Source: an uncultured Bacteriovoracaceae bacterium (lineage in GTDB: Bacteria; Bdellovibrionota; Bacteriovoracia; Bacteriovoracales; Bacteriovoracaceae). Taken from it: a stretch of 64,000 nt of DNA. The position numbers and the translations under genes are program-made. Under the pieces are notes generated by a model that had not been told where the DNA came from, made no database searches, and was given only the letters and a program-made list of their open reading frames with translations. Positions 9,658-13,176 of the stretch are shown here, one piece after another. Each line of letters begins with the position of its first letter. Position 1 is the first letter of the stretch. The DNA lies in NCBI GenBank assembly GCA_964423165.1, contig CAYRDP010000007.1, positions 283 to 64,282 on the forward strand, given 5' to 3'.

Positions 9658-11085
9658 ATGAACAACAAAGCAAGTATATTAGGTGGATTCCTTTTACTTG
9701 GAAGCTTATTATCGGGCTGTTCGAGTACGAGTGATTCAACGCGTTTGCCAGCAAGTACAATGGATGCAGGAATTATTGGCCCGAAAGGGGAAGTCATTCT
9801 TTTCTACAAAAAAAATAGCAAAATTATTGTTAAGCAATGCGAGGACTACACAGTTTTAAAATCAAGAAGTGACTGTAAAGTTAAGCCAGGAACGGTTGTT
9901 CAAAATGTTTCGGTTAGTGACTTTAAAAACTCTCTTAAAATGGCATTGAAGCTTCCTGGTGGAAACTATGATGCTGAAACGAAAAGAAAAATTGAACTTT
10001 ACAACAATGGCCAAAGAGATGATGTTGAAGAGCTTTCAAGGCGACAAAGAGAGCTAAAAGCTCAGATCGCAAAAATTGAAGCATTTATTGAAGAATATAG
10101 TGCTCAGGATGCAGATACTGGACACCTATCAAGCTTGATAGATAGTTTGTCTCAAGTGGAAGGTGATCTAGGGGATTATGCTCAACTTGGTCAGATTATT
10201 AAAGAGATTAATGAAAAAATTGACAACCTAGTTGATAATATTATTTCAAGCGATACCCTTTACAAATATACTTTCTCAAAGCAAAAAACAGGCTTTGTTT
10301 TTAACATTCTTAGAGCTTATTTAAGAGCACCAATGATTTCCGCTTCTTTCCAGAGAATTGCAAGAGGAAGCTTCACTATGGGAAGCCCTTCTAGTGAAAG
10401 TAATCGCGGTAGCGATGAAGGACAAAAAGAAGTCACGATTTCTAAGTCTTTTGACATCATGACTACGGAAGTAACTCAAATGCAATGGTTTTTAGTCATG
10501 GGGACAAACCCATCACGATTTAAAAAGCCAGAGCATTGTGACAACCACATTAATATTAACGGTGAAGGGTTATGCCCCAGTAATCCAGTAGAGCGAGTTT
10601 CTTGGAATGATGTTCAAACCTATATCAAGAAACTAAATGACTCTCTTGGGTTAAGTGGTTGTAATGGAACTCCAAGTGATTCAAAAGGATGCTATCGCCT
10701 TCCAACGGAAGCTGAGTGGGAATTTGCTGCTAGAGGAAAAGCAACAACAGCTTATTCTTTTGGAAATAGCTCATCAAGTTTAGGAAGTTATGCTTGGTAC
10801 AGCAGCAACTCAGATAGCAAAACTCATTCAGTAGGTTTAAAAAGGGCAAACCCTTACGGACTCTATGATGTTCATGGAAACGTATGGGAATGGGTACAGG
10901 ATAATTACAAGAATGGATTAACAGGTGGAACTAACCCGCTGCATACATCCTCCGGGTCTCTCCGCGTTATTCGTGGCGGCAGTTGGGGCAGCTACGCGCG
11001 GTACTTGCGCTCCGCGAATCGCTTCTTCGACATCCCGGACTACAGGTTCACCGGTGTCGGTTTCCGCCTTGTGAGGACACTGTAA
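9658..11085 (+). CDS. DGR variable (target) protein: lipoprotein with coiled-coil region and C-terminal FGE-sulfatase/C-type-lectin-fold domain
   Basis: [21 protein letters not shown] is a lipobox. FGE-sulfatase motifs are present: [50 protein letters not shown] and RGGSW. The last 45 codons are the VR. Confidence 0.9.
   Translation: [475 protein letters not shown]
10950..11075 (+). repeat. DGR variable repeat (VR)
   Basis: It aligns without gaps to 13051-13176 (offset 2101). All 93 non-A template positions are identical. 19 of 33 template adenines are substituted here. Confidence 0.9.
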
Positions 11086-11121
11086 TACTTTAGGGCTTTT
11101 ACACTTTTACCCTTTAAGATA

Positions 11122-11175
11122 GCCCTTAGAGCAGTGATGCGAAGCACACTTGCTCTAAGGGCGTTTTTTATTTTT
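11122..11175 (+). terminator. Intrinsic terminator-like hairpin downstream of the VR gene
   Basis: gcccttagagca (11122-11133) pairs perfectly with tgctctaagggc (11151-11162). A T-tract, ttttttattttt, follows at 11164-11175. Confidence 0.7.
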
Positions 11176-11185
11176 GAGAATAGTT

Positions 11186-11707
11186 ATGATGCAAGTCAAG
11201 ATTTTTACAATGCCATTTAACTCCCAATTGGGAGTTTTTGACGATGAAGAATTCAATAGCTTCATCAAAGATAAAGAGCTTGTGTCAGCTAATGACTACT
11301 TATTTCAGCGTGATGAGATTCCCTATCTAACTCTTGTCGTAAAATACAAACAGTTAGCTTCTGTAGTCATGTCTGCAAGTAATGGTACTAAACCTCAAGA
11401 AAAAACTAAGAATAATGAAGAGTGGAGAAAGCTCTTAGATGATGAGTCCATGCCACTATTTAATACCCTAAGACAATGGAGAAGTGAGAAAAGTAAAAAA
11501 GATGGTGTCCCTCCCTATGTCATTCTAAACAATAAGCAACTTGCGGAAGTATGCCAAAGAAGACCTCAATCCAAATTTGATCTTATGAAAGTTGAGGGTA
11601 TTGGAAAAGCAAAAGCAGAGAAATACGGAGATGAGATTTTAAAAGTAACTTCATACCCTGAAATAACTAAAGATACCAATGAACACTCAGCACAGCAATC
11701 CCCGTAA
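11186..11707 (+). CDS. HRDC-domain DGR accessory protein
   Basis: The C-terminal part, LFNTLRQWRSEKSKKDGVPPYVILNNKQLAEVCQRRPQSKFDLMKVEGIGKAKAEKYGDEIL, matches the HRDC pattern of RecQ/RNase D. The track start 11174 is TTG, so ATG at 11186 is more likely. It overlaps avd by 29 nt. Confidence 0.65.
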   Translation: MMQVKIFTMPFNSQLGVFDDEEFNSFIKDKELVSANDYLFQRDEIPYLTLVVKYKQLASVVMSASNGTKPQEKTKNNEEWRKLLDDESMPLFNTLRQWRSEKSKKDGVPPYVILNNKQLAEVCQRRPQSKFDLMKVEGIGKAKAEKYGDEILKVTSYPEITKDTNEHSAQQSP

Positions 11708-12047
11708 AAATGAGGAATTGCCAATTTTTGTAAAGTGGCTTGAGTTTTTAAAATGGTTTCTTCCGACTCTTGAAAAATTTCCTAAAAAAGCACGATTCAC
11801 CATTACAAGCAGAATTGAAAATATTGCACTTGATATTGTTGAGCTATTGATTGAAGCCAAATACTCAAGAGAGAAAAAGCCAATCCTAAGAAAGATCAAT
11901 CTCTACTTAGAAAAAATAAGAATCCTGCTGAGGATCTCACATGAAACAAAGCTAATTTCAACCAAGTCTTATAATTTTGCAAGCAAGGGGATCAATGAAG
12001 TTGGAATGATGCTTGGTGGTTGGCTTAGGCAGCAGGAAAGGCGATGA
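11679..12047 (+). CDS. avd: DGR accessory variability determinant (Avd, four-helix-bundle protein)
   Basis: 122 aa. LPIFVKWLEFLKWFLPTLEKFPKKARFTITSRIENIALDIVELLIEA...MLGGWLRQ matches the Avd / 23S-rRNA-IVS four-helix-bundle family pattern. It sits immediately 5' of the RT with an ATGA overlap. Confidence 0.8.
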   Translation: MNTQHSNPRKNEELPIFVKWLEFLKWFLPTLEKFPKKARFTITSRIENIALDIVELLIEAKYSREKKPILRKINLYLEKIRILLRISHETKLISTKSYNFASKGINEVGMMLGGWLRQQERR

Positions 12048-13042
12048 AAAGATATGGAAACCTTTTCAATAAAATTACTGAAATTGAAAACCTCTATTTG
12101 GCGGCAAAGAAGTCGTTTAAAGGGAAGAAATTTAAATATACCGCTGCCCCTTTTTATTTCAATCTTGAAAACGAGCTTCTGAAAATTCAAAGAAAACTAA
12201 ACGATGAAAGCTATCATCCTTCTTCTTATAAAATCTTTAAAATCTATGAACCAAAAGAGAGAAGAATTTGCTGTGCAGAATTTCACGATAGAGTTGTTCA
12301 TCATGCAATTGTTAATATTTTAGAACCAATTTTTGAAAGAAGGCTTATCTTTGATACTTATGCTTGCAGAGAGGGGAAAGGAACTCATGTCGCTTTGAAA
12401 AAAGCGCAGGATTTAGTAAGGAAATATAAATATTATTTAAAATGTGACATAAGAAAATATTTTGAATCTATTGACCATAATGCTTTAAAAGTATTGATAA
12501 GGAAGATATTTAAAGACAATAAACTGATAAGGCTTCTTGATAAAATTATTTCTCATCAACCACCCTATACTGCTCACGGGAAAGGTCTTCCCATTGGAAA
12601 CCTAACGAGTCAGCATCTTGCCAATATTTACTTGGGGGAACTTGATCTTTTTATCAAGCACGATCTCAGGTGTGTCGGATATGTTCGATATATGGATGAC
12701 TTTATTTTATTCTCCGATGACAAAAAAGAGCTGAGAATCTTTCTTGAAAAAATAAGAGACTTTCTTTCCGTGAACTTAAAGCTGGAGCTTAAAGAAAAAA
12801 TAGTCAAAATTGCACCAGTAAGTGAAGGGTTGCCTTTTTTTGGATATAGAATATTTCCTGGTTTGATTCGACTACAAAGGGCCAATCTTGTCCGATTCAG
12901 AAGAAAGGTAATGAGACTTGAAAAGAAATACAAAAAAGGAAAAATTAAGGAGGAAGATTTAATTAATTCTGTGAGAAGCGTGGTGGCTCATATTTCTCAT
13001 GGGAACACAAAAAATTTAAGAAATTCAGTATTTTTTAGGTGA
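12044..13042 (+). CDS. DGR-type reverse transcriptase
   Basis: The N-terminus is MKRYGNLF. It carries IGNLTSQHLANIYL (the DGR RT signature with SQ) and a YMDD catalytic box (VRYMDDFILF). At 332 aa it has no maturase or endonuclease extensions. Confidence 0.9.
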   Translation: MKRYGNLFNKITEIENLYLAAKKSFKGKKFKYTAAPFYFNLENELLKIQRKLNDESYHPSSYKIFKIYEPKERRICCAEFHDRVVHHAIVNILEPIFERRLIFDTYACREGKGTHVALKKAQDLVRKYKYYLKCDIRKYFESIDHNALKVLIRKIFKDNKLIRLLDKIISHQPPYTAHGKGLPIGNLTSQHLANIYLGELDLFIKHDLRCVGYVRYMDDFILFSDDKKELRIFLEKIRDFLSVNLKLELKEKIVKIAPVSEGLPFFGYRIFPGLIRLQRANLVRFRRKVMRLEKKYKKGKIKEEDLINSVRSVVAHISHGNTKNLRNSVFFR

Positions 13043-13050
13043 GTGGTCAA

Positions 13051-13176
13051 CTCCGGGTCTAACCGCGTTATTCGTGGCGGCAGTTGGAACAACAACGCGC
13101 AGAACTTGCGCTCCGCGAATCGCAACAACGACAACCCGGACAACAGGAACAACAATGTCGGTTTCCGCCTTGTGAG
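13051..13176 (+). repeat. DGR template repeat (TR), non-coding
   Basis: It starts 8 nt after the RT stop. It has 11 AAC codons plus one AAT in the VR frame ([38 protein letters not shown]). It is GC-rich relative to its surroundings. Homology to VR ends after gtgag. Confidence 0.9.

Follow-up and report, generated by a model that had tools for sequence, protein, structure and literature searches.

The 64,000-nt stretch of DNA analysed here (the window; contig CAYRDP010000007.1 of assembly GCA_964423165.1, positions 283 to 64,282, from an uncultured Bacteriovoracaceae bacterium) carries what we consider, with a probability of roughly 0.93, to be a chromosomal diversity-generating retroelement (DGR) of the HRDC-plus-Avd type. 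Its order is target gene with variable region (VR), HRDC gene, avd, reverse transcriptase (RT) and template repeat (TR). All parts of the cassette are present and intact. A preliminary description of this DNA had called a complete DGR, and the RT, Avd, the FGE/C-type-lectin target and the adenine-only TR/VR relationship were all found with independent tools. The main features of the cassette are as follows.

9658–11085, plus strand: DGR target gene, 475 aa (open reading frame; Pfam PF03781)
10950–11075, plus strand: VR, target residues ~432–473 (ungapped alignment to the TR)
11055–11075, plus strand: adenine-poor 3' end of the VR, same as in the TR (TGTCGGTTTCCGCCTTGTGAG, 21 nt; TR/VR alignment)
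11186–11707, plus strand: HRDC-domain accessory gene, 173 aa, isoelectric point (pI) 6.6 (gene call; Pfam PF00570)
11679–12047, plus strand: avd, 122 aa, pI 10.1 (NCBIfam NF033474; Pfam bAvd)
12044–13042, plus strand: DGR reverse transcriptase, 332 aa (PDB match to bRT 8ub7)
13051–13176, plus strand: TR (ungapped alignment to the VR)

Template and variable repeats differ at template adenines only

Pairwise alignment of 13051–13176 with 10950–11075, combined with base-by-base comparison, gave 126 columns with no gaps and 19 mismatches, in agreement with the ungapped repeat pair of the preliminary description. All 19 mismatches fall at TR adenines, comprising 11 A>T, 6 A>G and 2 A>C changes. The TR contains 33 A and 93 non-A positions. 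The VR is the same at 93/93 of the latter, and both this count and the replacement of 19 of the 33 adenines, likewise claimed before, were confirmed base by base. For 19 changes placed randomly among 126 positions, the probability that all land on the 33 adenines is ~5e-14.

The template is AAC-rich, as had been described: read in the target frame (codons start at 10951), the adenine-containing TR codons comprise 11 AAC, 2 AAT and 2 GAC, with ATT, AGT, CAG and AGG occurring once each. None of these codons (0/19) can be converted to a stop by mutation, and the theoretical repertoire of the TR is ~10^18.8 proteins. The TR and VR peptides differ at 13 residues, and retranslation agrees exactly with the two peptides given previously.

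The RT stop was located at 13040–13042 with the TR beginning 8 nt later, the spacing already reported. From the sequence, the two bases just before this start (13049–13050, AA; VR counterpart TC) could be extra repeat bases. TR/VR identity ends at 13176/11075, where the next base is T in the TR and G in the VR; the 3 bases after that agree. Directly 3' of the two TGTCGGTTTCCGCCTTGTGAG copies the sequences thus part (GACAC in the VR, TACAA in the TR). By analogy with the initiation of mutagenic homing (IMH) element of Bordetella phage BPP-1 (PMC3240598), the stretch 11055–11075 may represent an IMH-like 3' junction. A scan of the whole 64-kb window that was blind to adenine positions revealed no second VR. 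An open reading frame at 13043–13528 (plus strand, 161 aa) was considered as a gene and rejected: it is the TR read in frame, continuing into a structured RNA tail, and is very unlikely to be a gene.

The reverse transcriptase resembles those of DGRs

The RT carries the motifs IGNLTSQHLANIYL and YMDD, both of which had been noted before. Its best match in the PDB is the Bordetella phage bRT (8ub7, E 2.7e-55, residues 2–294), followed by group II (LtrA, E 2.8e-19) and retron RTs at 2.8e-19 or weaker. The RT motif IGNLTSQ aligns with bRT I181–Q187; in DGR RTs the signature [I/V/L]GxxxSQ replaces QGxxxSP (PMC7826257). Furthermore, the alignment with 8ub7 places equivalents of bRT K29, F66, R74, I76, I181 and Q187 in the window RT, and R74 and I181 have been shown to promote adenine mutagenesis in bRT (PMC7826257). 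By sequence, the RT groups with DGR RTs.

The top NCBIfam match of the RT is a group II intron maturase (TIGR04416), in a collection that has no DGR-RT model. This could be taken to indicate a group II intron, retron or defence RT, with the repeat pair arising from chance or duplication. However, the maturase match scores 137.9 bits compared to a cut-off of 300, retron St85 scores 58.6 compared to 235, and the Drt models remain far under their cut-offs. RNA families of introns or retrons were absent from an Rfam scan of the window. Among structural relatives bRT leads by 36 orders of magnitude, and the adenine-only pattern, improbable by chance as given above, recurs in A-biased form beside RT relatives. 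A chance repeat next to a non-DGR RT is refuted by the bRT match, the curated-model scores and the adenine-only pattern, and we assign it a negligible probability.

HRDC and Avd accessory genes

The preliminary description had placed an Avd-like gene and the RT between the repeats. Both are indeed present, but the interval contains three genes rather than two, the HRDC gene at 11186–11707 having been missed. This gene follows the target, shares a strand with it and with avd, and overlaps the avd start by 29 nt; its product matches PF00570 with 76.7 bits (cut-off 23.8). A profile search for Avd, as had been proposed, yielded the NCBIfam model NF033474 (DivGenRetAVD) at 113.1 bits, above its curated cut-off of 80. 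The protein also matches Pfam bAvd (PF22296, 77.9 bits, cut-off 40) and the PHROG 'Avd protein of DGR', with no sequence-level match among the solved structures of the PDB. The avd gene in turn overlaps the RT start by 4 nt.

The target gene encodes a putative lipoprotein with a C-terminal FGE-type domain

The 475-aa target begins with a signal peptide, read from the sequence by eye, containing the lipobox LLSGC (Cys21); it looks to be of the Sec/lipobox type, and the product is presumably displayed on the cell envelope. An N-terminal region of ~210 aa has no Pfam family match. Residues 234–473 form an FGE-sulfatase/C-type-lectin-fold domain (PF03781, 158.8 bits, E 2.7e-46), and the VR sits inside this domain at the C-terminal end of the protein. 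The best solved relative is TvpA (2y3c), the DGR variable protein of Treponema denticola (E 8.9e-32), with the alignment extending through the VR and matching the C-terminal VR region of TvpA. Together, the PF03781 and TvpA matches bear out the earlier assignment of a C-terminal VR to a C-type-lectin/FGE fold.

A (TAATTG)4 hexamer tandem repeat at 9600–9625 separates the likely promoter of the target gene from its ribosome-binding site. L085, a sister strain, and the related contig L086 have only ~2 copies, and the 12-nt length difference might affect expression. A Cro/C1-type helix-turn-helix (HTH) regulator gene (9081–9413, minus strand) is divergent from the target and occupies the same position in L085; it is possible that it regulates the target or the cassette.

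Predicted RNA structure around the TR and the hairpin after the VR

The region surrounding the TR, whose RNA elements had escaped the preliminary description, and that following the VR contain these predicted elements.

11122–11175, plus strand: hairpin (11122–11162) then T-run (DNA fold; terminator scan)
13036–13048, plus strand: 5' arm (UAGGUGAGUGGUC) of the RNA duplex around the TR; overlaps the RT stop codon (pairing with 13239–13251)
13177–13330, plus strand: structured RNA 3' of the TR (covariation; sub-threshold Rfam RT-14)
13196–13217, plus strand: 9-bp stem with tetraloop (consensus fold, covarying)
13239–13251, plus strand: 3' arm of the flanking duplex (pairing with 13036–13048)
13254–13267, plus strand: small stem-loop, then A-rich GACGAAUAAAA
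13281–13324, plus strand: long terminal hairpin, then U-run (consensus fold, covarying)

The arms 13036–13048 and 13239–13251 are predicted to form a 12-bp duplex with one G-G mismatch (-21.1 kcal/mol). Among 46 candidate partners of the upstream arm, the window's own downstream arm is the best; the same holds for the respective own arms in 12/46 cassettes, compared to a chance expectation of ~1, and the arms covary in relatives. A consensus fold was derived from an alignment of the region 3' of the TR in 12 related cassettes. In this fold 93% of cells are paired, compared to 41–47% in slid controls, and double changes occur in 15/18 pairs, a level reached in 0/500 shuffles.

The 149 nt after the TR (13176–13324) match the full 144-position Rfam model RT-14 (RF02921) with the same stem order, albeit at 40.0 bits (E 2.7e-4) against a gathering threshold of 48.1, and the region is hence not filed as a member. 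At a relaxed threshold RT-14 was found only in the window and L085 (42 bits), with none in the distant Bdellovibrionota relatives tested. With the gathering threshold applied, the cassettes of the window and of 13 related loci had no Rfam match, and a match to the Rfam family 'Phage_DGR' (17 bits against 50) was rejected as noise. RT-14 is an RT-associated motif described by Weinberg et al. 2017, who in the same paper identify RT-10 with the BPP-1 spacer and speculate that RT motifs other than RT-10 work in DGRs (PMC5737381). In the cryo-electron microscopy study of the bRT-Avd-RNA complex, a duplex flanks the TR and a 9-bp tetraloop stem follows it directly on the 3' side, elements reported to be conserved in other DGRs (10.1101/2023.10.23.563531). 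In silico, the RNA elements around the window TR correspond to those of BPP-1 and further DGR RNAs.

The hairpin at 11122–11162, located 3' of the target stop codon, folds as DNA with -21.3 kcal/mol (z -6.2; 0/200 shuffles equally stable) and was also found by the terminator scan. It is predicted from its sequence to be the intrinsic terminator of the target gene. By analogy with the role in homing described for such structures (PMC3240598), it is also a candidate for a DGR target-recognition hairpin/cruciform. No (GC)14-type element was found at the target site.

Two genes without family match, of 104 aa and 428 aa, occupy 13316–14913 (minus strand), convergent with the RNA tail and syntenic in L085.

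VR alleles of related lineages differ mainly at template adenines

Five lineages were compared: the window, its sister strain L085 (ERZ21878121, contig ctg1679l), and L086, L087 and L088. Contigs of the window's own clone and related contigs were recovered by exact-protein look-ups, and L088 by a DNA pattern scan. A metagenome scan with a 73-nt adenine-masked TR/VR pattern gave 0 matches; a second scan, using the VR 3' junction as pattern, gave L088 as the one extra allele. The flanks of L085–L088 are 3.7–9.0% different from those of the window and 5.8–9.7% different from one another.

The five lineages carry five different VR alleles. Over these, 28/33 columns at TR-A sites vary compared to 3/93 at non-A sites, with 79/590 columns varying in the upstream and 27/123 in the downstream flank (~13–22%). 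The A sites of the VR are thus hypervariable, and the remainder of the VR varies less than the flanking sequence, as repeated overwriting from a conserved template predicts. L085 is the only relative with a TR on its contig. This TR differs by C>T (GGCGGT) at the counterpart of window 13081, and T is likewise found at this place in the VR of L085, which points to information having passed from TR to VR after the lineages split. Given the lineage-specific A-site alleles and the mirrored TR change, we conclude that retrohoming has occurred in this lineage.

Several observations weigh against the DGR reading. At least 10 contigs of the clone (L081–L084, L089–L095), from ~10 samples, are 99.97–100% identical over the cassette, and the VR is identical in every one of them, with no diversification visible over that timescale. 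L086 and L087 keep the target without the adjoining avd-RT-TR cassette: in L086 (1786–3816) the cassette is cut inside the HRDC gene and followed by resolvase and integrase (rve)-fragment genes, while in L087 (1537–2093) an HTH gene follows the target terminator. The VR of L088 (636–765), whose TR lies off the contig, has two non-A differences, a C>T near the 5' edge and a G>A in CCCGGAC. To these can be added the sub-threshold score of the RT-14 match and the position of the post-VR hairpin, which at 46 nt from the VR end is farther than in BPP-1 and could be a terminator only. Compared with the window TR, the L087 VR (1399–1531) is longer by a 3-nt in-frame insertion; the TR of L087 itself lies off the contig.

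As L086 and L087 lack the cassette beside the target, it is dispensable and can be lost. With a single fixed VR across the clone contigs, the present-day activity of the DGR is unproven. The preliminary description had considered the element probably active. For the past of the lineage this is borne out by A-site VR alleles that vary from one lineage to the next, whereas the contigs of the present clone do not demonstrate it. Similarly, its expectation that polymorphism be confined to TR-A sites is borne out between lineages (28/33 against 3/93) and not within the clone, where there is no variation in at least 10 contigs.

A possible, though less probable, reading is that an intact-looking DGR diversified the lipoprotein in the past and is now quiescent or tightly repressed, the VR being effectively a fixed allele in the present clone. 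The same VR in every clone contig across ~10 samples is consistent with this, as are the related lineages that retain the target without the cassette; the divergent HTH gene at 9081–9413 and the terminator between target and cassette furthermore suggest regulated expression. However, the open reading frames are all intact, the catalytic YMDD and the adenine-mutagenesis residues are conserved, the TR is still stop-free and AAC-rich, and the RNA elements are intact. The TR is identical in all clone contigs. These contigs are consensus assemblies of a nearly clonal population, with 0–2 single-nucleotide polymorphisms in 6.5 kb, and therefore hide minor alleles and offer little time depth.

The clone samples are JGI 3300008625, 3300007512, 3300007770 and 3300007765, ENA SAMN10231911/-22/-23 and Logan SRR9166051 and SRR8062322/3. 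As no paper was found in the literature for the sample and run accessions, the habitat is known from record names only; the L086 record is labelled sponge metagenome.

Proposed mechanism

For the DGR we propose the following mechanism. The accessory genes, RT and TR would be transcribed as one RNA ending in the structured, terminator-capped tail. Sequences just upstream and ~60 nt downstream of the TR would pair, with the 9-bp tetraloop hairpin and further stems between them, and the paired RNA would serve as a scaffold on which the RT-Avd complex, probably joined by the HRDC protein, could prime itself and copy the TR. The RT is expected to copy C, G and U faithfully and to place random bases opposite A. 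The resulting cDNA would replace the last ~126 nt of the target gene, rewriting as many as 19 codons, 11 of which are AAC, for the ligand-binding face of the C-type-lectin/FGE-fold domain and never yielding a stop. In this manner, the binding specificity of the lipoprotein product could be re-drawn from ~10^19 variants. Within this scheme we infer how priming proceeds chemically, what HRDC and the post-VR hairpin do, the surface exposure and ligand of the target, and any firing of the element today.

A bolder version appears doubtful to us. In this version, a predatory or host-attached member of the Bdellovibrionota varies a prey- or host-recognition adhesin, akin to the tropism switch of BPP-1, and reverse transcription in the widespread target-HRDC-Avd-RT-TR clade depends on HRDC as the third member of the complex.

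Relatives of the cassette

The 80 nearest RT relatives in species-representative genomes (L001–L080) were examined, all of them metagenome-assembled genomes (MAGs). The closest, at 52–58% identity, are almost all labelled Bdellovibrionota, with one 52% match labelled Heliomicrobium. The window's own organism has no copy in the species-representative genome contigs, the best RT match there being 58% identical, and the host was accordingly placed by its nearest relatives, as Bdellovibrionota-like. The nearest IMG/VR RT is only 46% identical. Overall, the nearest relatives span many bacterial phyla and include several DPANN-type archaeal MAGs (e.g. L046, L058, L066, L079).

When a simple DGR finder was applied, 19 of the first 30 loci yielded A-biased TR/VR pairs, in most cases with the TR immediately 3' of the RT and the VR ~2.3 kb upstream; over all 82 loci scanned, namely L085, the window and the 80 relatives, 58 had such a pair. 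By tblastn, an HRDC homologue lies beside the RT in 52/80 relatives, usually together with Avd. When all 88 loci are counted, including close copies of the window element, Avd is found at 63 and an FGE-type target at 60. Since HRDC, Avd and target are found beside most relatives, the target-HRDC-Avd-RT-TR order is, on this sequence comparison, a widespread conserved cassette. Wu et al. 2018 classified HRDC-containing DGRs as Architecture C, reporting 14/372 in a GenBank-based survey, of which only about half also carry Avd (PMC5758913). The 52/80 relatives with an HRDC homologue, usually with Avd, thus make HRDC-plus-Avd DGRs much commoner among MAGs than the 2018 figure of 4% from GenBank.

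Comparison with known systems and significance

The window element shares with the BPP-1 DGR (mtd-VR, avd, TR, brt) adenine-specific TR-to-VR transfer, an RT paired with Avd, and a C-type-lectin fold whose C-terminus holds the VR. The alignment between the window RT and bRT spans 293 residues (E 2.7e-55) and takes in the IGxxxSQ motif and the R74 and I181 equivalents, and both systems have a TR-flanking RNA duplex and a 9-bp tetraloop stem 3' of the TR. Unlike the phage-borne BPP-1 element, that of the window is chromosomal, has its TR after the RT rather than between avd and brt, and has HRDC as an additional gene. Instead of a tail-fibre tip, it targets a lipoprotein bearing an FGE-type domain, its post-VR hairpin is terminator-like and 46 nt from the VR, and its Avd has no sequence-level match to any solved structure.

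Another parallel is the Treponema denticola DGR with TvpA (Architecture C), likewise chromosomal, with an FGE-type C-type-lectin target, a C-terminal VR and an HRDC accessory gene; the window HRDC protein is near-neutral (pI 6.6), as reported for the class (PMC5758913). The window element differs from that of Treponema in having HRDC and Avd together, in host phylum, and in the extra ~210-aa N-terminal region of the target that is without family match. Both the lipoprotein nature of the target and the chromosomal location also invite comparison with Legionella pneumophila. Its chromosomal DGR reportedly (Arambula and colleagues, 2013) diversifies the C-terminus of the surface lipoprotein LdtA, resembling the window element in location, in varying a lipoprotein C-terminus and in expected envelope display. 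LdtA is said to use a Tat signal, whereas the signal of the window target looks to be of the Sec/lipobox type. The Legionella DGR uses an MSL accessory gene rather than HRDC (PMC5758913).

The significance of the locus should be seen against the size of the family. DGRs are well known, with tens of thousands of catalogued examples, and the present locus is an ordinary new DGR that leaves the understanding of DGRs unchanged. It adds a clean, fully intact chromosomal DGR with both HRDC and Avd, and brings natural evidence of use: each of five lineages has its own VR allele, and a mutation in one TR was copied to the VR of the same strain. As the same cassette adjoins most of the 80 nearest RT relatives, in many phyla, the locus would be a reasonable model for the role of HRDC in retrohoming. 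It could also be used to test whether the RNA tail 3' of the TR acts like the spacer RNA of the BPP-1 element. On the host side, the locus marks one presumed envelope lipoprotein as being under selection for changing ligand specificity.

Genomic neighbourhood

The genes flanking the cassette in the window include glyA, fabF/G/D/H, alr (alanine racemase), mlaEFD, exbBD, a sigma-54 activator and tRNA-Pro. Pfam and PHROGs searches of the window found no phage capsid, tail, terminase, portal or integrase genes. The locus is chromosomal and not phage, and in this respect the preliminary description, which reported no phage structural genes nearby, was correct.

Upstream of the cassette, an insertion sequence was identified.

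6538–8951, minus strand: IS66-family insertion sequence (tnpC 6581–8167, tnpB 8220–8564, orf1 8561–8881)

This element has imperfect terminal inverted repeats and is bounded by an 8-bp target duplication, ATTTAAGC, at 6530–6537 and 8952–8959. It lies 0.7 kb upstream of the target, and L085 has an empty site. A 28-nt copy (27/28) of the 3' end of tmRNA is located at 5498–5525, where L085 has an intact tmRNA gene. The DNA to the left of 5498, including the gene for a 1075-aa leucine-rich-repeat protein (2084–5311), has no counterpart in L085. Given the tmRNA 3'-end copy here and the intact gene in L085, this DNA looks like a genomic island inserted at ssrA.

It could be argued from these features that the DGR belongs to a prophage or other mobile element, with the target acting as a phage receptor-binding protein as in BPP-1. 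The IS66 element and the tmRNA 3'-end copy are situated 1–4 kb upstream, HTH repressor-like genes flank the cassette, and in L085 the locus is just downstream of ssrA. However, the window lacks the phage genes listed above and has housekeeping flanks, the nearest viral RT is 46% identical compared to 58% for Bdellovibrionota MAGs, and the target has a lipoprotein signal rather than a tail-fibre architecture. Furthermore, the IS66 element is a strain-specific insertion outside the cassette. We therefore consider a prophage origin very improbable. The IS66 and ssrA features make the neighbourhood of the chromosomal DGR variable but fall outside the cassette itself.

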